Assembly (NCBI RefSeq): GCF_024223415.1
Contig: NZ_CP100500.1
Reading direction: 5' to 3' (one strand)
Length of the DNA: 64,000 nucleotides
Source: Escherichia coli
Lineage (GTDB): Bacteria > Pseudomonadota > Gammaproteobacteria > Enterobacterales > Enterobacteriaceae
The notes under the pieces were generated by a model, which had not been told where the DNA came from, made no database searches, and was given only the letters and a program-made list of their open reading frames with translations. Within the stretch, counting starts at the first letter, position 1; the number at the start of each line of letters is the position of its first letter. Made by a program: the position numbers and the translations under genes. Positions 1 to 12,539 of the stretch are shown here, piece after piece.

Positions 1-1062
1 CCCAGCCAGTCTTGCCATATACTCTGCATTTTTAGCAGCATATTCTCTGAAGTCTCTTAAAGGCCCCAGAACCGCCATCTTCGATTCCACATCGTTGTAA
101 TAGTCCGTCCAGATTCTGGCTGCCTGAGGAGAAAAGTGAAGGCAACGTCGCTCTCCCCTCATAGCCAGGCTTTCATCAATAAGTTCATTGATCCTCTTGT
201 CAAATAACTCCTGATACTGTGATGAATAATTATCTCCGGTTATTATCCTTGTCCCCTGCGTTGATGTTGGTTGACACATCAAAAACCGTGCATGATGTCC
301 TGATGTCTTCACCAGTTCTTTTTTTCGTGTACAAAAACCTTTGTGGTAAACATCAGGCTGAATCATCACCGATATCGTCAGTCTTGGGTCCTTCAAAAAA
401 ATCCCGGGAGATGATTTCCTGTCGATGAAAAGGGAACTACCATCCCATAAAGAGTTAAGTATTCCCAGTTTGCTCATTGCCCGGCTGTCAAAAATCACCC
501 CGCCCTCACTGGATACAAGAGCAAAAGAGCGATTGCTGTCGGAATAATATTTAAACATTCCCTCTGTCGTCGTATCATTAAAAATTGTCCGATTTATCTG
601 CGGTGGAACAGGACAACTATTCAGATGCATTCTGAGCTCTGATTCTGTTGCTTCATACTCTTTACCGGCACGAATCTCTTTATGAAGTTTTGACTCCAGT
701 GCCTTTTGTTTTTGCTCCCATATTTCCTTTTCTGCACTGTAATTCTCAACCAGTTTCGCATATTCTTCCGCAAGAGTTTCATCCCTGAGATAAAATGCTT
801 TCATAAAAACTTTATCCACGGTCGTTTTCCTTTCGCCGGAATCAGCCAGAATCATAGCGTAAAGATTAGAGGGGCCACGTAAATTACCAGGTCTGCACAC
901 ATCAATCTGATTCTGACAGGCAACTGACACCGCTGTTAATGCTGCTGTTGCAACCAGAGCCCCGGGCGCCTGTGTATTTTGCTGAGTTTCAATTATTGCA
1001 TTTCTCACCAGAGATGTTAATGCATTTATCGGAAAAGGGGCTTCCTGTTCAAGTAAGGACAT
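1..1062 (-). CDS. DUF3987/YfjI-like protein of a P4/CP4-57-type integrative element; 3' end lies beyond the window start
   Basis: Manual reverse translation from ATG (rc of 1060-1062, GAGGT Shine-Dalgarno upstream) is stop-free to position 1; N-terminus MSLLEQEAPFPINALTSLVRNAII. Absent from the ORF track because it has no in-window stop. Family assignment from memory of CP4-57 yfjI. Confidence 0.5.
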   Translation of the reverse strand, partial: MSLLEQEAPFPINALTSLVRNAIIETQQNTQAPGALVATAALTAVSVACQNQIDVCRPGNLRGPSNLYAMILADSGERKTTVDKVFMKAFYLRDETLAEEYAKLVENYSAEKEIWEQKQKALESKLHKEIRAGKEYEATESELRMHLNSCPVPPQINRTIFNDTTTEGMFKYYSDSNRSFALVSSEGGVIFDSRAMSKLGILNSLWDGSSLFIDRKSSPGIFLKDPRLTISVMIQPDVYHKGFCTRKKELVKTSGHHARFLMCQPTSTQGTRIITGDNYSSQYQELFDKRINELIDESLAMRGERRCLHFSPQAARIWTDYYNDVESKMAVLGPLRDFREYAAKNAEYMARLAG

Positions 1063-1321
1063 AAATACCTCAATTTTAGTTAATAAATCAGTAAAGTAGC
1101 AGATATTCCCGCTATAATAGCCAAAATAGCTGCTATGCATAGCCGATATGTTCTGAAAAATACAGTAATCGGGCATACCTGATGTTGAACAAAACGATAA
1201 GGTTGATTCAATTCAGCCTGTATTATTAGCTACGTAACATCATTCACATTGCTCACTCCTGACATCTTCTGATGATTATTTCAACGACGCCTTATTCATG
1301 GTCGTTTTCCTTTTTCATGAA

Positions 1322-1543
1322 TCAAAAAACAACCATAGTGTAAATATTCATGGGTTCACGAAAATTATCTAATCTGCACACATTAGTCAGATCCTGACGG
1401 GAAATTGACATATCTGTTAATACTGGCATTGCCATCAGAGTCAGAGGTACTTGTTTATTATATTGAGCTTTAATCATTGCCTTTCCCATCATTAATGATC
1501 GCGCATATACTGAATACGGCGTATCCGGTTTTATGTAAGACAT
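1322..1543 (-). pseudogene. Truncated degenerate duplicate of the 5' end of the DUF3987-like gene
   Basis: 73-aa ORF; protein and DNA at about 1290-1620 parallel 810-1140 (QVPLTLMAMPVLTDMSISRQDLTNVCRLDNFREP versus QAPGALVATAALTAVSVACQNQIDVCRPGNLRGP). Confidence 0.4.
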
Positions 1544-1718
1544 AAATGCTTCCTTTGTCGTAATGCGTGTCGGTTATAGCAGCAATTACCGCTACAATAG
1601 CGACAATAGCTGCTCTTTCAACAATGAATGCTGGAAATTCTGTTTATCAATTAAACTTCTGGCTAAATTATTCTTATGCTTCTTTTTCCTCCTGAGGTGA
1701 TCACGTGATGACAAAAAC

Positions 1719-2015
1719 TTATCTGCTCATGGTCATATCTGAAGAAAGCGTATGTCGCACTTCGTCATTAACACCTTTTACTGCTGATCTGGCTGGTACA
1801 GTATGTAAAGTAAGCCATTCGTCAATAGCTGATGAACGCCAGCCCACAGAACCACTACCAAGACGTACCGGCCTTGGGAAGGTTGCATCGTAATATTTCG
1901 ATAACGGATTCATTTTTTCGTAAATTGTCGAACGAGATATACCTAACAATTGGCTCAGTTCAGGCATCCGTAAGATGCGTGAAGGAGTCCAGCAGTGTCC
2001 GGATTGATCTGGCAT
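1719..2015 (-). CDS. AlpA-family (prophage CP4-57 type) transcriptional regulator
   Basis: Motif ILRMPELSQLLGISRSTIYEKMNP...YDATFPRPVRLGSGSVGWRSSAIDEWL matches the AlpA helix-turn-helix pattern; start trimmed to the internal Met (MPDQ) of track ORF 1719..2114. Confidence 0.6.
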   Translation of the reverse strand: MPDQSGHCWTPSRILRMPELSQLLGISRSTIYEKMNPLSKYYDATFPRPVRLGSGSVGWRSSAIDEWLTLHTVPARSAVKGVNDEVRHTLSSDMTMSR

Positions 2016-2237
2016 TTTATCCCCCTTAGTGTGGTGAACTGTCGTTACAGTTTGTATTCCTCGGGTAAATTTTTCTGCGTAAAAAAATGGGTTGAGCAAA
2101 AAGACAATAAACAACTAAAAATCAATATGATAGGAAACAACAGCATTATTGTTATTTTACTTTTCCCTTATCGCTGTCGATTCTCATTATCATTCATGGC
2201 AAAAAAACAGTAAAAGAGGCCCTAGTAATGACTCCGG

Positions 2238-2630
2238 TCAGTAGTACATGTGCTTCGATAAATGAACCAATGGCTTTTCGTTAATTTCCACGGAGCGTGA
2301 AAAGCAAATCGTTTTCAGGGATGGGAGTTTGATGTGAGTACGAAGTATCAGATTGTTGCGCTCAATGCGCCGGGTAAATATCCTGCCGACAGGATGCTTA
2401 TCCTGTGGTACTTCTCTGGTATAACTGCACCAGTTTTCACTGGTTATCATGCCTGAGGAGAATGGCTTCAGAAGTTCCGGCAACTCACTACATGTTTCAT
2501 CAGTACGAGGACCAAAAGTGTAAGCCCGCACACCGCCAGATTTGGTGTTATACGCATACCAGAGCCAGTGCTGACGAGCTTTGTTTCCGACAAAGCTCCA
2601 TTGTTCATCAAGTTCGCATATAAGCGCCAC
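2238..2630 (-). CDS. insB: IS1-family InsB-like transposase ORF
   Basis: MALICELDEQWSFVGNKARQHWLWYAYNTK...TRRIERNNLILRTH aligns with IS1 InsB ([23 protein letters not shown]...TQRIERHNLNLRQH); the frame continues upstream of the first Met. Confidence 0.6.
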   Translation of the reverse strand: MALICELDEQWSFVGNKARQHWLWYAYNTKSGGVRAYTFGPRTDETCSELPELLKPFSSGMITSENWCSYTREVPQDKHPVGRIFTRRIERNNLILRTHIKLPSLKTICFSRSVEINEKPLVHLSKHMYY

Positions 2631-2659
2631 ATCGGCACTGGCGACTGGAGATGTGGTTA

Positions 2660-2916
2660 CTTTGCATGGTGAGCGTTTTTTAAAGTGCGAATGACTGTGT
2701 TGATACCCACCTTCAGTGTTCTGGAGGTATCGCGAACCCCGGTTCCGTTATGAGCCATTTCAACGATTTGCTCTTTAACACTTGGTTTTCGGGCTTCGCA
2801 GGTGTAATTCAGTTGAAATACACGTTTGCAGGAGCGGCACTGGAAACAGTGCTGTGACCGTGACGGTACACTTTATCGGAATTACAGCGGGGACAATGTA
2901 CGGTAACTGTTGCCAT
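2660..2916 (-). pseudogene. insA: IS1-family InsA-like ORF with an apparent frameshift in the N-terminal zinc-finger region
   Basis: Reverse translation gives MATVTVHCPRCNSDKVYRHGHSTV then a stop; another frame continues QHCFQCRSCKRVFQLNYT...VEMAHNGTGVRDTSRTLKVGINTVIRTLKN, which is InsA-like. Confidence 0.45.
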
Positions 2917-3111
2917 ATGGACTCCGGATACCAACAGAATACCCCATTAATCTGCCCCCGGAAGTCATCCCGGTGCCTTCTGACATAATCTGTTAATACA
3001 TGAATTATTGCCCTGTTCAGAAAATATTAATTAAAAAATGAAAACCAGTTAACAGAAAAGCCACATGACATAATGTTAAAATTTTATATCGTGCAATAAA
3101 AGGAGAATGTT

Positions 3112-4938
3112 ATGTACAATTTTATCACTATAATGTATGATGTCTTTTCATGTTTTGGTGTTCTGGCTAAAAACCAGAATATCCGTGACATCCGAAATAT
3201 TAAAAACTTTTCCTCACATCAACATTCACTGGCCGACATGTTTGATGAATTAACATACATTATTGACAAAGAACAGGTACTGAGCACAGAACAACGAAAA
3301 GTTATATTCAGGAGATATGAAGATCTGTATGTTAAACTCATGCACTATTCTGTTTTTACAGACAAAACACATCAAATAATAAAACAAAAATATTTTAATG
3401 ATGTTGTTCCAATGATTCTCGCGCTCGACATCAGGAACACATATCGCCCGGATAATGAGATGGCATTTTACTATCATATCCATTCTTTTCTCACTCAGAT
3501 ACCGGATAATGAGGATGATATATATCATGCTGTAAGGACATATATGAGAAATTATGTTAAGTTATGTTTATCCGGATACACACCAACGAATGCGCATTTC
3601 AAAAATATCTTTGATGGAGTATATGAATTCATTCGTAATATTCGCAAAAACAGTACACCCGGAAAAACAAAACTTATTGCAGCTATCAACATATGCAAAG
3701 AAGCCTGTAAATATCTGCTTTGTTTAAGTGATAAAGACAAGGAAATAATATTTTCCGACTTAGATAAAATTCAGGTTGCATGTTATTCTCTCACTATATT
3801 ACTGGCTTTCGAAAGACGAACATCATTAACAAGTAACCTGGCAACTTTATATAAAATGCTGATAAACGAAAGAGAAGTTTCAGAATATGAATGTCAGCAA
3901 TTATATTTAATCAACCCAATAGATGTAATGAATATACTGAACAAATACATATATTACTTCCCTGGTGAGAATTCACCTCTTTATACACTGAAAATTGACA
4001 GTGCATTATCGTGGGATGCCATTGATGCAATACGAGACTATAGTATTTCTGATATTTATCTTTATCCTGAACAAAAAACAATAAATTGTATCGTTGAGAT
4101 TGAAAACATTGTCTTTGGCGGTTACATTTATACATTGAGCGACGGCGTCACATTACAAAATATGGAAAACACTTTAAAAGATTCCTCATGTCATTATGTA
4201 TTAAATGGCTATACAGAATTTGTTAACTGTTTAAGACAACTTACTTCAGGAAAGACTGAAAGTGTTCAGCGTACCATTAATAAACTGGAGTACGAAAAAT
4301 TACCTTTTGGATTTATCATTGCCGCGTTTGCTATATTAAAAATAGCATTTAAGATAAAGTTCAGTAAAAATCATGTAAATACCAGGGCATTATTAAATGA
4401 CATCAGTTATTTTATGACTTATCAGGGCGAGTCCATTAATCTTATTTCACTGGATCATGAATATCCAGAGTTCCGTCTTCAAAATGACACAAATACATAT
4501 TTATTGGGAAGGATGATATTTCTATATAACTCAATGATCTATAAATTCAGAAACTGCCAGGAACATGAAACCAATAACATTAACTCAGTTATGATAAATA
4601 ACCTATTACAGGAAGTTGATATAGCCCTTGGTAAAATAAATGACATTATAGACAGCAGAAACATATCAGTCCCCCATGAACTGGCAAATATTCTTATCCA
4701 CGAAAAAATACTTACAACACGTGAAAAAAAAGGAAACCTGATAAGCCTGTTTGATGGATTCACTTTATTCCATTGTGTTGGAATGATAACCTTTCTTATC
4801 CATTACCTCAGAACTCCTGAAGAAAAAGTAGAAAATGTATTTATGTTATATGGTGCAGATAAAAACAATAAACTACGCAGAAGACTGATTTATGATGCAC
4901 TAGAAATAATTCAGTCTCAGCAGGAGATGAAACCTTAA
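3112..4938 (+). CDS. Hypothetical 608-aa protein; AT-rich orphan cargo gene with no recognisable motif
   Basis: Long ORF with canonical AAGGAG Shine-Dalgarno 8 nt upstream of the ATG; AT-rich composition; no P-loop, HEPN, nuclease or transmembrane signature seen by eye. Confidence 0.8.
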   Translation: MYNFITIMYDVFSCFGVLAKNQNIRDIRNIKNFSSHQHSLADMFDELTYIIDKEQVLSTEQRKVIFRRYEDLYVKLMHYSVFTDKTHQIIKQKYFNDVVPMILALDIRNTYRPDNEMAFYYHIHSFLTQIPDNEDDIYHAVRTYMRNYVKLCLSGYTPTNAHFKNIFDGVYEFIRNIRKNSTPGKTKLIAAINICKEACKYLLCLSDKDKEIIFSDLDKIQVACYSLTILLAFERRTSLTSNLATLYKMLINEREVSEYECQQLYLINPIDVMNILNKYIYYFPGENSPLYTLKIDSALSWDAIDAIRDYSISDIYLYPEQKTINCIVEIENIVFGGYIYTLSDGVTLQNMENTLKDSSCHYVLNGYTEFVNCLRQLTSGKTESVQRTINKLEYEKLPFGFIIAAFAILKIAFKIKFSKNHVNTRALLNDISYFMTYQGESINLISLDHEYPEFRLQNDTNTYLLGRMIFLYNSMIYKFRNCQEHETNNINSVMINNLLQEVDIALGKINDIIDSRNISVPHELANILIHEKILTTREKKGNLISLFDGFTLFHCVGMITFLIHYLRTPEEKVENVFMLYGADKNNKLRRRLIYDALEIIQSQQEMKP

Positions 4939-4961
4939 ACAGGAAAATTATTTTTTATAAA

Positions 4962-4986
4962 CAGGGGATTATTGAGTAATCCCCTG
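4962..4986. terminator. Hairpin between the convergent 608-aa gene and int
   Basis: Inverted repeat CAGGGGA...TCCCCTG flanked by A/T runs. Confidence 0.35.
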
Positions 4987-5122
4987 CTCATCAAAACCCA
5001 CTTTCCTGACAATCTGATAACTATCAGCTCAATACATTTGACATAAAAGAGATCCCTTAATTATTACCGTTACGGTCACAATCACATATCAAATCATGAT
5101 TGTACAATATACATTTTCACTA

Positions 5123-6325
5123 TTATTTATTCATAATCTGAGACATCACATAATCCGCCCATGCCTGCATCATCGGTACACGCTGCTCCAGTAGATCAGT
5201 ACGATGATATGCCGCCTCAACCTTATTTTTCAGCGTATGAGCGAGCGCCCTTTCAGCCAGATCCCGCGAATACCCCTGCTCACTACACCAGTCCCTGAAT
5301 GTTGAACGAAAACCATGTGCCGTGGCGACTCGCCCCGGAATATCACTGACGGCTTTCTTTTTACGCAGAAAACTGGTCAACACCATATCTGAAAGGATCT
5401 GCTGCTTTCTGGGTGAAGGAAACACCAGTTCATCATGCAGACCACGTATATTTTCCAGAATGTAAATAGCCTGTCGGGATAAAGGAACACGATGCTGTAC
5501 CCTGGCTTTCATTCTTTCTGCTGGTATCGTCCATATCTGCTTATGAAAATCAATTTCAGTCCAGCGCATTCCCCTGGCTTCACCCGAGCGGGTTGCTGTA
5601 AGTATCACCATTAATAACAATGCGCGGGTAACATTATAGGGTTCATCGGTATACACACTGGTCGCCACAAAAAGCGGTAACTGCCTCCATGGCATTGCGG
5701 GTTGGTGTTCATCACGTCCTCTTGTCTGCTGGGGAAGCAAATGATCAACCACATCCACAGGATTTGCCACACAAAAACCATGTGCCCATCCCCACTGCAT
5801 AACAACATGAATGCGCTGTTTAACCCGGCTTGCCGTTTCTGACAAAGTTAACCAGACTGGCCGCAGTGTTTCTGCCACGTCCGCAGCCGTAATCGAATCC
5901 AGCGTTTTCGCTCCCAGTTGAGGAAAGGCGTAATTCTCAAGCGTCGATAACCACTGCCGGACATGCTTTGGATTTTCCCATCCAGGAGACAGTTCTGCAT
6001 GTACACGTCTGGCTGCATCGGCAAATGTTGGGATAACAACTTTTTCAGCCTCAGCCTTTTTAATCTCCAGAGGATCATCACCAGCAGCAAGTTGCTCTCG
6101 CATTATCCGGGCAGTACGTGCAGCTTCAGCAATGCTGATCTCAGGGTAAGTTCCCAATCCAGCATTACGCCTTTTTTGTGTCACCGGACTTACATAACGA
6201 AAAACCCATTTACCCCGACCCTTTACTGAAGAAGGATGAAGGGTCAGTCCTGTAATTCCCCCATGGGGCAATGGTTTGTCATCAGGTTTGATATGCCTTG
6301 CTTTCGTATCCGTCAATACTGCCAT
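5123..6325 (-). CDS. int: Tyrosine integrase, P4/CP4-57 family
   Basis: 400 aa; C-terminal catalytic region HGFRSTFRDWCSEQGYSRDLAERALAHTLKNKVEAAYHRTDLLEQR is typical of P4-like integrases. Confidence 0.9.
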   Translation of the reverse strand: MAVLTDTKARHIKPDDKPLPHGGITGLTLHPSSVKGRGKWVFRYVSPVTQKRRNAGLGTYPEISIAEAARTARIMREQLAAGDDPLEIKKAEAEKVVIPTFADAARRVHAELSPGWENPKHVRQWLSTLENYAFPQLGAKTLDSITAADVAETLRPVWLTLSETASRVKQRIHVVMQWGWAHGFCVANPVDVVDHLLPQQTRGRDEHQPAMPWRQLPLFVATSVYTDEPYNVTRALLLMVILTATRSGEARGMRWTEIDFHKQIWTIPAERMKARVQHRVPLSRQAIYILENIRGLHDELVFPSPRKQQILSDMVLTSFLRKKKAVSDIPGRVATAHGFRSTFRDWCSEQGYSRDLAERALAHTLKNKVEAAYHRTDLLEQRVPMMQAWADYVMSQIMNK

Positions 6326-6343
6326 ACGCTAATTCCTGTTACT

Positions 6344-6367
6344 CTGGTATGCCATCTGGTATGCCAT
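6344..6367. repeat. Tandem direct repeat CTGGTATGCCAT x2 just upstream of the int start; candidate arm-type integrase site
   Basis: Two perfect adjacent 12-bp copies 19-44 bp upstream of the int ATG. Confidence 0.4.
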
Positions 6368-6482
6368 TATCTTCACGCTTCAGTCAGAATACAGTAGATG
6401 ACATCAGACAGTAAAATATGCAATATACTGTTTATAATCAAATTTTATGACACAACAGGACTCATTCAGATTCATTTCAGGC

Positions 6483-6499
6483 GGTCCCCCTCACCGCCA
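6483..6499 (+). other. tRNA 3'-end-like sequence (CCCCTCACCGCCA); candidate att core or host serW 3' remnant at the island boundary
   Basis: Resembles a tRNA-Ser acceptor/CCA end but no complete tRNA (no T-arm) precedes it; followed by an intrinsic terminator. Confidence 0.35.
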
Positions 6500-6510
6500 T
6501 ATTTAAAGAA

Positions 6511-6541
6511 GAGCTCGTACGAAAGTGCGAGCTTTTTTTTT
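6511..6541 (+). terminator. Rho-independent terminator
   Basis: AGCTCG-loop-CGAGCT stem followed by a T9 run. Confidence 0.6.
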
Positions 6542-6543
6542 CG

Positions 6544-6692
6544 CATTTTATCTGCCTGTACGGCAGTGAACATGGTGGGCGGGTGGAGTATGTTACCAGT
6601 GAATTTCTAAGCTGCCTGTACGGCAGTGAACGTTTGCTGCAACCGCTAGCCAAGACGGTAGGTTTTTCTAAGCTGCCTGTACGGCAGTGAAC
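6544..6692 (-). CRISPR. Orphan type I-F CRISPR mini-array: 3 repeats, 2 spacers, no cas genes in the window
   Basis: Minus-strand repeat GTTCACTGCCGTACAGGCAGCTTAGAAA (the E. coli I-F repeat) at 6604-6631 and 6665-6692 plus a degenerate terminal copy at 6544-6571; spacers of 32-33 nt. Confidence 0.85.
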
Positions 6693-6842
6693 TCAAATAC
6701 TACACGTTTAGCCCGTTGTTAATAAAGCAAAACCATCCCATTCTCCTGCAGCACCCTTTTTTATCCTTACCTTCCAGCAGCACTAATTATCAACAACTTA
6801 CCTTCACCTCCAAAAATAGGGTTTTCACCGTTCCACCCCATA

Positions 6843-6879
6843 AATAAAAAGTCCGTAACCTCTTTCGAGATTACGGACT
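6843..6879 (-). terminator. clpA transcription terminator
   Basis: Stem AGTCCGTAA / TTACGGACT followed on the minus strand by a T-run, about 25 bp past the clpA stop. Confidence 0.6.
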
Positions 6880-6903
6880 TCACCAACCTACCTGACAATC
6901 AGA

Positions 6904-9180
6904 TTAATGCGCTGCTTCCGCCTTGTGCTTTTGTGCACTCTGAAATCCGTAAGTCAGCTCATTTTTCTCTTTATCCAGCGCGACGGTGACCTGACCGCCG
7001 TCCACCAGCGAACCAAACAGCAGTTCGTTGGCAAGCGGTTTTTTCAGGTTGTCCTGGATGACACGCGCCATCGGACGAGCGCCCATTGCCCGGTCGTAAC
7101 CTTTCTCGGCCAGCCAGTTACGCGCTTCCTGGCTCACTTCCAGAGAAACACCTTTCTGATCCAGCTGAACCTGCAACTCGACGATGAATTTATCCACCAC
7201 CTGATGGATCACGTCAGTTGACAGATGATCGAACCAGATAATGTTGTCGAGACGGTTACGGAATTCCGGTGTAAAGATCTTCTTGATCTCTTCCATCGCA
7301 TCGGTGCTGTTATCCTGGTGGATAAGACCAATGGATTTGCGCTCAGTTTCCCGTACCCCGGCGTTAGTGGTCATCACCAGTACCACGTTACGGAAGTCCG
7401 CTTTGCGTCCGTTGTTATCGGTCAGCGTACCGTTGTCCATCACCTGCAACAGAATATTGAACACGTCCGGATGCGCTTTCTCGATTTCGTCCAGCAGCAG
7501 CACCGCATGTGGATGCTTGATGACCGCATCAGTCAGCAAACCGCCCTGATCAAAACCAACGTATCCCGGAGGCGCACCAATCAGACGGCTGACGGTATGG
7601 CGTTCCATATACTCGGACATATCAAAGCGCAGAAGCTCAATGCCCAAAGCTTTCGAAAGCTGTACCGTCACCTCTGTTTTCCCGACCCCGGTAGGACCGG
7701 CAAACAGGAACGAACCGACCGGTTTATGTTCGTGACCTAAACCTGCACGCGCCATCTTAATGGCTTCAGTCAGCGCCTCAATGGCTTTATCCTGACCGAA
7801 GACCAGCATTTTCAGGCGATCGCCGAGGTTTTTCAGGGTATCGCGGTCACTCTGAGAAACACTCTTCTCTGGAATGCGTGCAATACGGGCCACCACGGAC
7901 TCAATATCCGCCACATTAACGGTTTTCTTGCGTTTGCTTACCGGCATCAGGCGTGCGCGAGCGCCCGCTTCGTCGATAACATCAATCGCTTTATCCGGCA
8001 GATGACGATCGTTAATGTATTTCACCGCCAGCTCTACCGCCGCACGCACCGCTTTTGCGGTATAACGCACGTCGTGGTGCGCTTCATACTTCGGTTTCAG
8101 GCCATTGATGATTTGAACAGTTTCTTCGATCGACGGTTCAGTAATATCAATTTTCTGGAAGCGACGCGCCAGAGCACGGTCTTTCTCGAAAATGTTGCTG
8201 AACTCCTGATAGGTTGTCGAACCAATTACGCGAATTTTACCGCTGGAGAGCAACGGTTTGATTAGGTTAGCCGCATCGACCTGACCACCAGACGCTGCAC
8301 CCGCACCGATAATGGTGTGGATCTCATCAATAAACAGGATGCTGTTAGTGTCCTGCTCCAGCTGCTTGAGCAACGCTTTAAAACGTTTTTCAAAGTCGCC
8401 GCGATATTTTGTGCCCGCTAACAGAGAACCGATATCGAGAGAGTAAATCGTACAGTCAGCCATCACTTCCGGCACATCGCCCTGAACAATTCGCCAGGCA
8501 AGACCTTCTGCAATCGCGGTTTTACCGACACCAGATTCCCCCACTAGCAGCGGGTTGTTTTTACGGCGACGGCAGAGAACCTGAATAGCACGCTCCAGCT
8601 CCTTCTCACGACCAATCAGTGGGTCGATTCCGCCCACGCGCGCAAGCTGATTCAGGTTCGTCGTGAAATTCTCCATACGTTCCTCCCCACCAGCTTGTTC
8701 TTCGCTGTTTGGCTGGCTGCCAGGATCAGAAGACTGTGTCGGCTCGTCTTTACGCGTGCCATGAGAGATAAAGTTCACCACATCGAGACGGCTGACTTCA
8801 TGTTTACGCAACAGATATGCCGCCTGCGACTCCTGTTCGCTAAAGATAGCGACCAGAACGTTTGCACCGGTAACCTCATTGCGACCGGAGGACTGGACAT
8901 GGAAGACCGCACGTTGCAGTACACGCTGAAAACTCAGCGTCGGCTGTGTGTCGCGCTCCTCTTCACTGGCAGGCAGAACGGGTGTGGTTTGTTCAATAAA
9001 GGCTTCCAGTTCCTGACGGAGCGCAACCAAATCCACAGAACACGCTTCCAGCGCCTCCCGGGCAGATGGGTTACTGAGCAGCGCCAGTAACAAGTGCTCG
9101 ACGGTCATAAACTCATGACGGTGCTCGCGCGCTCTGGCGAAAGCCATATTTAAACTGAGTTCCAGTTCTTGATTGAGCAT
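6904..9180 (-). CDS. clpA: ATP-dependent Clp protease ATP-binding subunit ClpA
   Basis: Product begins [35 protein letters not shown] and carries two AAA+ Walker A motifs ([16 protein letters not shown]); start trimmed from the track ORF. Confidence 0.95.
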
Positions 9181-9210
9181 AGGCACCTCCCCCAATTTTT
9201 ATGCCTGCAT

Positions 9211-9531
9211 TCAGGCTTTTTCTAGCGTACACAGCAATGGATGCTCATTCTCCCTCGCGTACTTGTTCACCATCGCCACTTTGGTTTCTGCAACCTCGGC
9301 GGTAAAGACTCCGCAAATGGCCTTCCCCTGGTAGTGAACAGCGAGCATCAATTGCGTTGCACGTTCTACATCATAAGAAAAGAATTTTTGTAACACGTCA
9401 ATAACAAACTCCATCGGAGTGTAATCATCATTGACTAATATCACTTTATACATAGATGGCGGTTTTAGCGCGTCGCGAACTTTTTCTTCCGCCAGTTGAT
9501 CAAAGTCCAGCCAGTCGTTCGTTTTACCCAT
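9211..9531 (-). CDS. clpS: ClpS adaptor protein
   Basis: 106 aa, [47 protein letters not shown], directly upstream of clpA. Confidence 0.95.
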
Positions 9532-9616
9532 TGTCAGTTATCATCTTCGGTTACGGTTATCGGCAGAACGCCCTGCCGCTGACAAGAGCTTATTTGCCTG
9601 ACCAATCTACTCCACA

Positions 9617-9633
9617 TGATAGATAACTATCAT
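9617..9633. other. Left att core candidate TGATAGATAACTATCAT
   Basis: Near-identical copy TGATAAATAACTATCAT at 20087-20103. Confidence 0.4.
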
Positions 9634-9705
9634 TTATATCATTTAGTTAATTAGTCTTTATTTTTCATTATGTTGCAAATAACAAGCCCGTCAAAAACAG
9701 TGATA

Positions 9706-9760
9706 TTAACTACACCATTAACTACACCGCTTCACGAACAATATCGAACAACCGCGAACA
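9706..9760. repeat. Left-arm repeats: AACTACACC x2 followed by CGAACA x3 (candidate integrase or accessory-factor sites)
   Basis: The same motifs recur in the same orientation at 19946-20078. Confidence 0.4.
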
Positions 9761-9880
9761 AAGATCAACACGCTTTAATCATTATCATTTTCCGGCTATC
9801 CGTCATGAAGCTGGTGGATGATCTGCGTGGTGATTTCCACCATTCAGAGCAGGTGCGGTCATCATGACCATGCCATAACA

Positions 9881-9905
9881 AAAACCCCATATTCGTGGTT
9901 TTTCT
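9881..9905 (+). repeat. 25-bp direct repeat copy 1 (AAAACCCCATATTCGTGGTTTTTCT)
   Basis: Second copy AAACCCCCGGATTCGTGGTTTTCCT at 10518-10542; the pair flanks a hairpin-rich non-coding segment. Confidence 0.5.
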
Positions 9906-10517
9906 GTGTCGGGGCTATTCTGCTGTTGCCGTGCTGGTGGATATTCTCCGGTATGCGGCTCCCCATATCGGCATCAGGCCCACCAGCGTGAAGCGTTTTT
10001 CATTTTTCGCGGGTATAAAAAATCGATGGGGCGGGCAGTCCTGAAGACGTCAGGGTACAGAGATTTGACCCGCCCCTCCCTGTGCATGAGCACAATAAGT
10101 AACCGAAGGCGGAATTCCGCCCTCGGTACTTACATATGAGAAACGATATTTCTTCCACCGATACCCTTTATTTGGGTATCGCGAGTAAGCCCCAAAATCT
10201 GGGTGTTACTCTTACTACCCAAACTACGGGTAGTTTCCGTAGTTTCATGGTCGAGTTGCAAATCTGCAACTCACCCACCAGCCAGCGCAATGTCGCATTA
10301 TCAGTCCTCAGATGTGAGGGATGTAGCCAGCTTTTCCCCCAGTGGGGATTATCCAGTTACCGACGGTTTAACCGCCTGTACCAGCACAACGAAAGAATTT
10401 GCGGGTAGCTTTAAACTACTCACAACATCCCATCTTACAGGCCGTGCCTTTCTAACTTTTTACAATGCAATAAGTCAGGTAACGCTATGCGTTCCACCGT
10501 GTACACCGCGCCAGTAA

Positions 10518-10542
10518 AACCCCCGGATTCGTGGTTTTCCTG
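10518..10542 (+). repeat. 25-bp direct repeat copy 2
   Basis: See copy 1 at 9881-9905. Confidence 0.5.
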
Positions 10543-10554
10543 AATATCAGGAAT

Positions 10555-10929
10555 CTACCGCCGCAACCGTTCCGGCTTCTTCCACTGATAAGTGTTTTTC
10601 GCGCTCTCCCTCCGTTGTTGAGAACGGCGACGGTATGCCAGCAACTCAAGGACTCTGGTTCGTATGTTGCGCATATCCACGCCGTTAAGCTCAATACCAT
10701 CACGGCGCATCACCTCAGCAACAACACACGCGTAATTTTCGGCTATCACGCTGTCCGGCTGCGTGGCCTCCTGTTCGCCAGCCTGCTGGCTGATTCCGGT
10801 AATACTGCGGATTATCCCGAGCGCTTCGGTCTCGGTCATGGTCATGGCCTCCATAGTGATGGCGGGTCCTCCTTGTGGGGTGCCCTGCCACGGGGCGGGA
10901 GCATCGCGGAAAAAGGCTAGTTTTTGCAT
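10555..10929 (-). CDS. Hypothetical protein of the satellite packaging module
   Basis: 124-aa ORF downstream of the Nu1-like gene; no recognisable domain; start uncertain. Confidence 0.45.
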   Translation of the reverse strand: MQKLAFFRDAPAPWQGTPQGGPAITMEAMTMTETEALGIIRSITGISQQAGEQEATQPDSVIAENYACVVAEVMRRDGIELNGVDMRNIRTRVLELLAYRRRSQQRRESAKNTYQWKKPERLRR

Positions 10930-11090
10930 TTTTATTCGTTATCACCACCAATGCAATATATTGATATGACTTGATGTTTTATTTTTCGGTGTCGATTTCG
11001 ATTGTTTTTTGTTCATCACTGACGCATAACGCCCACCAGCGCAACGCTGAAAGCCAGTCAGTAAACTGGCTTCGGTCATTGTGCACTACG

Positions 11091-11645
11091 TTACTTGTCT
11101 TTATCCGGCTGAAACTTATCAGGCACATTTCCGGTAGTTTCCATCAGATAATCGGACAGCATTCGCGGGATGTTTTCATCAAGTTTTGTGCATGCGTTAC
11201 AGGCTCTGACAACTTCTTTTTTCAGGCCATCCAGCATGGCGGGGGTCATCTGTGGGAAGCTCCTTTGCATAGTAAGCGGGAGGCTGTCCATGATTGATGA
11301 AATCTGACTCGCCAGTTTTGAAAGCGCGTACATGCAAAACTCTGTATCAATCACGTCACCGCGATCGCGCTCGTTTTTAAGTTCCTGCGCCTCCGCCTGT
11401 GCTGTCAGTAATCTGATCCTGACTCGTAAAAGTTCATCATCGTCAATCTCGCCTTTGTCGTTTGTAATCTGGCTGATTGCATTGTTAACCCGATTATCTA
11501 TTACACTGGCGACATCATAAAACGTCTCACGGCCCTTACGCTCGACGGGAATCACTCCCCACTTATCGAACGCAGTGGCGCTTACTCGGCAGCTTTTCGC
11601 CATGTTTTTTTTATTCATCAGGTGCGATTTCATCAATACCCCCAC
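11091..11645 (-). CDS. Terminase small subunit, lambda Nu1-like
   Basis: LLRVRIRLLTAQAEAQELKNERDRGDVIDTEFCMYALSKLASQISSIMDSLPLTMQRSFPQM...LDENIPRMLSDYL aligns with lambda Nu1; probable true start at the MNKKNMAK Met near 11618. Confidence 0.8.
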   Translation of the reverse strand: MGVLMKSHLMNKKNMAKSCRVSATAFDKWGVIPVERKGRETFYDVASVIDNRVNNAISQITNDKGEIDDDELLRVRIRLLTAQAEAQELKNERDRGDVIDTEFCMYALSKLASQISSIMDSLPLTMQRSFPQMTPAMLDGLKKEVVRACNACTKLDENIPRMLSDYLMETTGNVPDKFQPDKDK

Positions 11646-11727
11646 TTAATTAATGCTTCAGGTTGGTGTGTTGGTGTTATCTTTCCATTTTTATTCATAG
11701 AGATAGAGCGAACAACAAAACCACCAC

Positions 11728-11790
11728 CAACCCGAAAAGGCTCATAAATAGCGAAAATCCGCAAGGTCGACGCCCCGTAACGGGTCCACA
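11728..11790 (-). other. Lambda-type cos site (cosN/cosB)
   Basis: Minus strand reads ACGGGGCGTCGACCTTGCGGATTTTCGCTATTTATGAGCCTTTTCGGG, matching the lambda cos sequence as I recall it (ACGGGGCGGCGACCTCGCGGGTTTTCGCTATTTATGAAAATTTTCCGG); about 120 bp upstream of the Nu1-like gene. Confidence 0.8.
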
Positions 11791-11805
11791 TGCCGGAAAG
11801 GACCC

Positions 11806-11835
11806 ATAAAAAATAAAGCCGGACTACTCCGGCTT
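11806..11835 (-). terminator. Rho-independent terminator after the FinO/ProQ-like gene
   Basis: Stem AGCCGGA / TCCGGCT followed on the minus strand by a T-rich run. Confidence 0.5.
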
Positions 11836-11858
11836 CGTCTCTTCATGTGGTCAGGGTT

Positions 11859-12539
11859 TTATGCTTTCCGTACGCCCGAGGAACTGGCATTTTTCAGAAT
11901 AATATTATGCCCTGCTGGTGGCTTACCGTTATGCTTATTTTCTGCCTTCATGTTTCTGCGCTCCTGCTGTTTTTTCTTCATCTCATCCAGTCGCTTCCCC
12001 GCGTTCAACTGGTGCTCCTGTGTCACCTCCCCGCACGGATGGCCTTTCAGGTCGTAACGCACGCCACCAGCCATCAGGGAACGGTAATATCGCACTGAAC
12101 TGACATAATACGCCAGCGTTGCGCGAAGCGCTCCCTGACCTAATGAAATACCTCTCGCAGTAATATCCTCCATCAGGTCATCAAATATGCCAACCTTAAG
12201 CGGTCTGGGCGATTCCTGGCTGAAAAGTTCAGGCCAGAGCGCGGCAAGGCGTTCAACGCGTCTGATATTTTTTTTCCGGCTCTTTTCTGATTTGCGTTTT
12301 GCTGCCGTCTTCTGTTGTGTTTTCTGCTCGCGGCTCTGCTTTTGCGCTGGTGTGGTTTTATCCGGCTGTTCAGCCTCCTGCGTCTTTTTCTGCGGTGTGC
12401 CGTATATGCCTTTTGGTTTTCGGTTAATGGTCAGCTTTGTCATGTTCTCCCCCTTTGTGCTGTTCCACCAGCGGCATCTGCTACCCCGTGTCGCTCCCGC
12501 TGGTGTCGTGTTTCCCCGCCTGTTAATAACCGTCATCAT
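11859..12539 (-). CDS. FinO/ProQ-domain RNA-binding protein with a Lys/Gln-rich N-terminal region
   Basis: RPLKVGIFDDLMEDITARGISLGQGALRATLAYYVSSVRYYRSLMAGGVRYDLKGHPCGEVTQEHQ aligns with the E. coli ProQ N-terminal domain (RPLKIGIFQDL...RLYTSSWRYL...RVDLDGNPCGEL); start uncertain. Confidence 0.75.
   Translation of the reverse strand: MMTVINRRGNTTPAGATRGSRCRWWNSTKGENMTKLTINRKPKGIYGTPQKKTQEAEQPDKTTPAQKQSREQKTQQKTAAKRKSEKSRKKNIRRVERLAALWPELFSQESPRPLKVGIFDDLMEDITARGISLGQGALRATLAYYVSSVRYYRSLMAGGVRYDLKGHPCGEVTQEHQLNAGKRLDEMKKKQQERRNMKAENKHNGKPPAGHNIILKNASSSGVRKA

Follow-up and report, generated by a model that had tools for sequence, protein, structure and literature searches.

A probable relic of the start of a yfjI-family gene, with a second copy of a conserved upstream palindrome, in a genomic island of Escherichia coli

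The CP4-57 island of E. coli K-12, which is associated with ssrA, offers a described point of comparison for the locus considered here. Like our island, it carries an AlpA-family regulator, a palindrome (GCTATTTCCGCCATTAATAGCGGAATAGC) and a DUF3987 gene, yfjI, followed by a YagK/YfjJ (inovirus Gp2-like) gene. Unlike ours, which lies beside clpA rather than at ssrA, it holds these elements in single copy, with 129 bp from alpA to yfjI. The annotated islands of E. coli strains C5 and ET5 are 87-91% identical to our DNA at the nucleotide level and share with it the order integrase, 600-aa ORF, (IS1 remnant), alpA, gene fragment and YfjI family gene. For the fragment, hereafter copy B, PGAP gives a 65-aa 'DUF3987 domain-containing protein' in C5 (WP_000579535.1 / RG28_RS32815) and a pseudogene in ET5 (NMD24_RS03340; 'incomplete; partial in the middle of a contig; missing C-terminus'). 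The relic that we describe was flagged by RefSeq annotation beforehand, and it is old, widely inherited and ordinary; the database annotation of the C5 and ET5 loci is silent on the duplicated upstream palindrome and on a truncation point common to the copies. In the literature on AlpA, yfjI, DUF3987 and YfjJ we found no description of either the relic or the palindrome. Copy B resembles the relics left in mosaic islands and prophages by partial duplication or illegitimate recombination, in that it is cut short to the 5′ part of a gene and brings a leader of its own, stands in direct repeat with the intact gene, and combines apparently neutral evolution with lineage-specific lesions. It differs from them in that the repeat takes in a deeply conserved, putative palindromic cis element, and is otherwise nothing unusual. 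Two further systems bear on that element. The plus-strand origin of the Ff phages (M13/f1) is nicked by gpII. In Pseudomonas aeruginosa, AlpA binds an element, GGGACGN5GGTA, placed between -35 and -10, which is not a long palindrome and acts together with a downstream intrinsic terminator (PMC7969949).

The window, by which we mean the whole 64,000-nucleotide stretch of E. coli DNA analysed (contig NZ_CP100500.1), contains one end of the island, from position 1 to about 6400. It adjoins clpA; the clpA-clpS segment (6900-9900) is 99.5% identical to E. coli. Listed leftwards on the minus strand from the tyrosine integrase (5123-6325), the island comprises a 608-aa ORF without Pfam match (3112-4938, plus strand), a decayed IS1 (about 2238-2930), alpA (1719-2015, minus strand; 98 aa) and, beyond copy B, the intact yfjI-family (DUF3987) gene. 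The alpA product matches Pfam PF05930 Phage_AlpA (E = 5e-19), and the gene is 99% identical to its ortholog in strain C5. The yfjI-family gene (1..1062, minus strand) begins at an ATG at 1060-1062 and has its 3′ end off-window; it is open across all 354 codons inside the window and passes Pfam PF13148 DUF3987 with 260.7 bits (E = 3.1e-77, profile positions 1-325 of 364). RefSeq names its orthologs 'YfjI family protein'.

Between alpA and this gene we found a direct repeat on the minus strand, the units of which, as judged by eye, extend over 799-1165 (copy A, the start of the intact gene) and 1279-1645 (copy B), 480 bp apart. An earlier note on this DNA had read 1290-1620 as a diverged copy of 810-1140, taken to be the start and upstream sequence of a DUF3987-like gene, and had proposed that a pseudogene fragment was thereby left between alpA and the intact gene. 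Its identification of the gene start and its placing of the fragment agree with the features just listed. The repeat itself is recovered by MAFFT, by a repeat search and by blastn, with bounds by eye slightly wider than those first given. In the blastn alignment of 812-1134 with 1292-1614, 69.4% of 327 columns are identical and 8 positions are gaps; its E value is 8e-32 for the pair alone and 1.4e-29 when the whole 64-kb window is searched, and copy A was the sole significant second match of copy B in the 64 kb. MAFFT aligned 790-1160 with 1270-1640 nearly without gaps, and the repeat search of the window reported two direct-repeat families (D1, D2), both with a spacing of 480 bp. The pairwise similarity that the earlier note had proposed as a check is far above chance, with a Smith-Waterman score of 147 against 19.4 ± 2.3 for shuffles (maximum 33, n = 300).

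Each unit, in the sense of the gene, consists of about 30 nt, an imperfect palindrome of 37-39 bp, a leader of about 34 nt with a ribosome-binding site, and coding sequence. Copy A accordingly runs from the upstream stretch (1136..1165, ..CTGTATTTTTCAGAACATATC..) through palindrome A (1097..1135; TAGCAGCTATTTTGGCTATTATAGCGGGAATATCTGCTA in minus-strand reading; pattern match 1105-1130) and the leader with ribosome-binding site (1063..1096, ..AAAATTGAGGTATTT ATG), which aligns with that of copy B, into codons 1-88 (799-1062). In copy B, on the same strand, the upstream stretch (1615..1645), similar to 1136-1165, is followed by palindrome B (1577..1614; AGCAGCTATTGTCGCTATTGTAGCGGTAATTGCTGCT(A) in minus-strand reading; pattern match 1585-1610), the leader with ribosome-binding site (1544..1576, ..ACAAAGGAAGCATTT ATG) and a coding relic (1279..1543) corresponding to about the first 88 codons of a yfjI-family gene. 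Both palindromes were delimited by the repeat search, and the 37-bp imperfect palindrome is the best-conserved part of the repeat. The 73-aa ORF of copy B lies at 1322-1543 on the minus strand, where it had first been placed.

That ORF ends after a 1-nt insertion, a +1 frameshift near 1321-1326, and homology to copy A runs on past its stop for 15 more codons in the shifted frame. Here FFDS*KRKTTMNK of copy B aligns with LADSGERKTTVDK of copy A; in the post-insertion alignment, FFDS*KRKTTMNKASLK of copy B stands against LADSGERKTTVDKVFMK of copy A. A TGA at 1310-1312 takes the place of the Gly codon of a conserved SGERK motif, and similarity between the copies stops at a TAA at 1276-1278, at about codon 88 of the gene. 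Copy B therefore amounts to about 88 codon equivalents with the frame broken after codon 73, without a complete domain or a full-length frame (about 470 aa). Its ORF stays under the Pfam DUF3987 cut-off (20.7 versus 27 bits; E = 2.6e-4; profile positions 1-42 of 364), and its peptide is 38% identical to the N-terminus of copy A, to be compared with 55% for the N-terminus of K-12 YfjI, which is itself less similar to copy B. Other lineages carry other lesions: strain C5 has a TGA at codon 15 together with an 11-bp deletion, locus L030 a frameshift and locus L032 a 12-nt deletion, while the TGA in the SGERK motif is common to most copies of B, not all. Over the first 72 codons, dN/dS among copies of B ranged from 0.37 to 2.98 with a mean near 1, a noisy estimate from 5 sequences only, and among copies of A from 0.43 to 0.67, so that even in the intact gene constraint on the N-terminus is weak. 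The values for copy B are consistent with loss of constraint, in a small sample. A search of 5.8 billion proteins, using as queries the ORF of the window and P0003, the least-decayed ortholog of that ORF, found no full-length protein with a B-type N-terminus; ORFs at the copy B locus in public data are 45-126 aa long and differ in their starts and ends.

We conclude, with a probability of roughly 0.85, that copy B (1279-1645) is a relic without function, derived from the leader and first 88 or so codons of a yfjI-family gene. The pseudogene fragment suggested from the letters alone is thus supported by homology in a shifted frame, lesions that differ between lineages and the PGAP call of 'incomplete', and the dN/dS values are in keeping with it. 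The 73-aa ORF is merely what stays open in this strain, and it does not merit the status of a gene. That it encodes a functional small protein, one that consists of the N-terminal part of DUF3987 on its own and, for instance, regulates the full-length protein or competes with it, could be argued from the ATG with its Shine-Dalgarno-like AAGGAAG, from a 99% identical 73-aa protein in public data (P0001) and from the ORFs that PGAP calls at copy B in some genomes. We hold this to be very improbable, as the frame is broken differently in other lineages (by a stop at codon 15 in C5, by frameshifts and deletions elsewhere), orthologous ORFs are 51-67% identical with variable starts and ends, dN/dS is about 1 and the Pfam score lies under the cut-off. 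Since copy B has kept its start codon, its ribosome-binding site and a palindrome that folds well, the relic may still be transcribed and translated.

The arrangement alpA-B-A is found in about one fifth of E. coli genomes. Using window positions 700-2100 as query, which take in the 5′ end of A, the spacer, copy B and alpA, we found that 1,024 of 5,426 complete E. coli genomes match at least 80% of the query at 80-90% identity; over its full 6.4 kb, the island end finds matches at about 91%. Many O157:H7 strains are among the carriers of the island. The earlier note says nothing of the old age of this arrangement or of how common it is in E. coli. Nine further duplicated loci were gathered (L001, L002 and L027-L032, together with protein-database variants). 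In every duplicated island examined (window, L001, L002, L027-L032), copy B ends at one common point, and all of them have an orthologous spacer between the copies, which together indicate a single ancestral event. Within this family the copy B of the window is a rarer, more diverged variant, its coding part being 76-83% identical to other copies of B. A single-copy relative is present in E. coli 2013C-4974, where an ET5-type island has one palindrome and is without the relic; this state may reflect the ancestor before duplication or else a loss by deletion between the repeats. As single-copy relatives exist (K-12 CP4-57 and 2013C-4974), the relic is dispensable, and its persistence in about one fifth of E. 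coli genomes could reflect slow deletion or some benefit. In itself it is of little weight, one more gene relic in a mosaic island, although with a truncation point and spacer constant in the duplicated islands examined it serves as a stable marker that defines a large E. coli island family.

We infer the single event, and likewise its age. In the ancestor of this E. coli island family, one event would have set side by side two direct copies of a unit made up of about 30 nt, palindrome, leader and about 88 codons. The distal copy (A) alone would continue into a complete gene, and the proximal copy (B) would have lost its coding function and then drifted, patched by recombination. As to the divergence of the copies, the synonymous distance between A and B (0.32-0.53) exceeds that between A genes (0.06-0.34), which places the A-B split before the divergence of the A genes sampled. 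A and B from one island are no more alike than A and B from different islands, and we thus see no sign of concerted evolution or gene conversion keeping the copies alike; concerted evolution of A and B was rejected on this ground. Comparison with locus L027 gives a mismatch, in that the two B copies are 82% identical (18% different) and the A copies 96% (4%), for which drift alone is insufficient and recombination or conversion from donors is needed. The region is indeed mosaic, with a patchwork structure in the B copies. One and the same downstream DNA follows two unrelated alpA genes (of 98 aa and 75 aa), and the changeover lies directly upstream of palindrome B; upstream of 1645, island types diverge completely, each with its own alpA. 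The relic locus therefore displays an exchange of modules right at the palindrome.

By what event the two copies arose may be judged from the spacer (1166..1278, minus strand) that separates the copy A unit from the end of copy B. An in-situ tandem duplication of a unit of about 480 bp, followed by divergence, would explain the side-by-side placement of the copies, in direct orientation and in register at exactly 480 bp, as well as the finding that A and B are mutual closest relatives with respect to K-12-type yfjI genes. It also predicts that the spacer should resemble the DNA upstream of B, that is, the 3′ end of alpA. Neither blastn and tblastx against all loci nor local and global alignments found any similarity of the spacer to either alpA type or to the upstream flank of copy B, in contrast to the coding parts, which are still 65-78% identical. 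Against alpA, the spacer gave a local score of 16 (shuffles 16.0 ± 2.2) and a global score of 2.0 (shuffles 3.9 ± 1.9). A resemblance noted by eye had raised the idea that the spacer is a decayed 3′ end of alpA; it was dropped, as nothing rose above shuffles. Of the tandem duplication first suggested for this locus, the direct, adjacent and in-register position of the copies (480 bp) stands, while the homology of the spacer to the DNA upstream of B does not, and we consider this route possible though on the doubtful side.

The other route is an illegitimate recombination, in which an incoming segment of upstream DNA, palindrome and complete yfjI would have been joined to a resident yfjI at about codon 88, so that the spacer would be upstream DNA of the donor. 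The spacer is 110-140 nt long and matches orthologous spacers only, with 72-94% identity in the fetched loci and 75-77% in 91 E. coli genomes. It is unrelated to the resident flank, which is what such a joining would leave, and the mosaic state of the region, with two unrelated alpA genes on the same downstream DNA and patchwork copies of B, points the same way, as does the excess of A-B over A-A synonymous distances. Against it, the spacer was found in no other context, that of a donor included, among 5,426 E. coli genomes or the fetched loci, where it occurs solely as orthologous intergenic spacer, and the protein-database search yielded no full-length gene with a B-type 5′ end. Given the unrelated spacer and the mosaic region, we favour illegitimate recombination over in-situ duplication and give it about even odds.

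The part of the repeat that reaches beyond E. coli is the palindrome. Both window copies fold as hairpins, and B does so better than A (z of -4.76 and -2.60, respectively, with DNA parameters). Palindrome B of the window recurs unchanged in E. coli C5 and L027, and the ET5 type departs from it at 3 positions; in all duplicated islands both palindromes are kept, 466-480 bp apart. They are degenerate variants of a 30-bp palindrome that precedes yfjI-family genes in taxa ranging from Enterobacterales to Pseudomonas, the family consensus of which, GCTATTTCCGCTATT|AATAGCGGAAATAGC, is a perfect palindrome with four GCTATT hexamers. We scanned a degenerate pattern, derived from the window copies and K-12, against one genome per species. 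Matches upstream of yfjI-family genes were obtained in E. albertii, Enterobacter, Siccibacter, Escherichia sp. ESNIH1, Dickeya, Mangrovibacter and Phytobacter, in an Enterobacteriaceae MAG and in three Pseudomonas species, together with chance matches in pilin-like coding sequences. A pattern of the family consensus added two instances on IMG/VR contigs, and in total the family is upstream of yfjI-family genes at no fewer than 14 loci (Enterobacterales, Pseudomonas, IMG/VR). Beyond the known copies, no more half-sites (GCTATTNNNGCTATT) were found in the window or in K-12 CP4-57. The earlier note had not remarked that the conserved upstream sequence is a palindrome common to the yfjI-family genes of many genera.

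Across 18 instances, the 13 core pairs are paired in 95.6% of cases, and where only one side has changed, the result is mostly U.G on the yfjI-sense strand. At the six positions of the flanks, pairing is present in 70% of cells by way of different sequences, with changes on both sides at 6/6 pairs. Covariation there scores 0.254, with shuffles giving 0.126 ± 0.014 (0/500 reach it) and slid controls a much lower score, a comparison whose significance the shuffles overstate because the palindromes are related to each other. The pattern suggests that a hairpin or cruciform may be selected besides sequence-specific recognition. From Enterobacterales to Pseudomonas the palindrome exceeds the neighbouring proteins in conservation and has covarying flanks, and we regard it as a putative conserved cis element of the alpA-yfjI-yfjJ module. 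It would thus point to an uncharacterised cis element of a widespread alpA-DUF3987-YfjJ module. In our opinion the duplicated palindrome is the sole part of this locus worth following, as a modest lead.

If the palindrome is such an element, the second copy might itself be what selection has kept, with or without promoter and leader, as one of two cis sites spaced at 480 bp (operator, origin, or RNA/ssDNA hairpin), and the fragment of the gene would be a passenger. Consistent with this, conservation within the repeat is highest at the palindrome, the palindrome family recurs upstream of yfjI-family genes at many loci with flank pairing that covaries across taxa, palindrome B folds better than A, and both are retained in all duplicated islands. 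On the other side, palindrome B haplotypes differ at 3/37 positions as against 14-22% in the adjacent relic, which by our estimate is not significantly fewer than the 5-8 differences expected; single-copy islands of the same type exist (L039); and the related sequences are non-independent samples. We therefore think selection for the second palindrome unlikely. A slightly more specific version, to which we give a little less credence still, is that the palindrome may be the cis site of an alpA-DUF3987-Gp2-like module, a candidate origin, helicase-loading site or operator acting as hairpin or cruciform, and that the relic would have been kept for a useful second site. Were this true, the second palindrome could be of use for cooperative binding or looping, for example, or as a second origin or promoter.

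With regard to the nature of such a site, a likeness to the Ff origin comes from two sides. The islands encode proteins matching Pfam REP_ORF2-G2P / YagK_YfjJ_C, and ATTAATAGCGGA, the centre of the family palindrome, agrees with TTTAATAGTGGA of the M13 origin at 10/12 positions. By our estimate this match is roughly what chance would give for the search space, and it is a lead only, not a sign of membership. In contrast to the conserved nick site of the Ff origin, the palindrome centre is variable across taxa, being AA, CG, AG, TG, GA or a single nucleotide among the 18 instances. Such variable central nucleotides argue against a central nick site and leave the resemblance to the M13 origin uninformative; an Ff-type nick site was rejected, as the central dinucleotide varies. 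YfjJ-like genes, as candidates for a cognate G2P-like Rep gene, share the element's loci, standing next to yfjI in L005, L011, L017, L018, L021 and L037 and elsewhere within the locus in L023 and L026; in our island the corresponding region lies off-window. K-12 YfjJ matches Pfam YagK_YfjJ_C and also REP_ORF2-G2P, the latter with 29.9 bits against a cut-off of 27.8.

Other regulatory identities were considered for the palindrome. Like the AlpA element of P. aeruginosa, it is a cis element, here a putative one, associated with an AlpA-family protein, but the two have no sequence resemblance, and we rejected the identification as GGGACGN5GGTA is absent from the palindrome sequences. An intrinsic terminator was likewise rejected, the terminator scan being empty at 1097-1135 and 1577-1614; a U-run after the hairpin is absent in most taxa. 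A clear sigma-70 promoter was not found at both copies, a weak 9/12 site being present at copy B only, within the chance number. Rfam 15 gave no match at E ≤ 1 in window positions 1-6400. Beyond the island, Rfam matches at 6428-6692 consist of CRISPR repeats and weak noise.

In taxa ranging from Enterobacterales to Pseudomonas, a 30-bp perfect palindrome, GCTATTTCCGCTATT|AATAGCGGAAATAGC, built of four GCTATT hexamers, is located upstream of genes belonging to the DUF3987/yfjI family. Instances were located in the window at 1097-1135 (palindrome A, upstream of the intact gene and its leader) and 1577-1614 (palindrome B, in the relic copy), both imperfect, as well as in K-12 CP4-57 (L003, 3410-3438) and in further comparison loci (L004, 229-258; L005-L026, L035 and L037). 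The arms of the palindrome reach into its flanks, and the flank sequences differ between taxa. In Pseudomonas sp. PA27 (L006) the order is palindrome, alpA, yfjI, placing the element upstream of alpA. Our search of the literature found no description of this palindrome of yfjI-family genes.

Two unrelated alpA genes, one encoding 98 aa with the Pfam domain Phage_AlpA and the other 75 aa, are fused to the same downstream DNA, as seen on comparing window 1615-1720 with 4908-4975 of the ET5-type island L002, and also in L030-L032 and L039. Because the changeover between the two alpA types lies directly 5′ of palindrome B, modules are exchanged at the palindrome element. Separately, L039 (E. coli 2013C-4974, 3760-3990), an island of the ET5 type, has one palindrome and lacks the relic. 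Its junction falls within approximately 35 nt upstream of the palindrome, in a stretch common to the intact and relic copies, and this single-copy state reflects either loss of the DNA between the repeats by deletion or the ancestral condition before duplication.

Between alpA and a 608-aa ORF (3112-4938, plus strand) sits a decayed IS1 (2238-2930, minus strand) with pieces of InsA and InsB; related E. coli islands hold the same remnant, labeled by PGAP as "IS1 family transposase, frameshifted; internal stop". The ORF itself, located within AT-rich DNA, gave no Pfam match at E ≤ 0.01, and is kept in related islands under the annotation "hypothetical protein".

Despite the P4-type tyrosine integrase within 5123-6540, ARAGORN identified no tRNA or tmRNA genes over window 1-12000. 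Flanked by this integrase and clpA are three type I-F CRISPR repeats (6544-6692; Rfam CRISPR-DR4) with two 32-nt spacers, which likely constitute E. coli's orphan clpA-infA array; two of the repeats are perfect copies of TTTCTAAGCTGCCTGTACGGCAGTGAAC and the third is degenerate.
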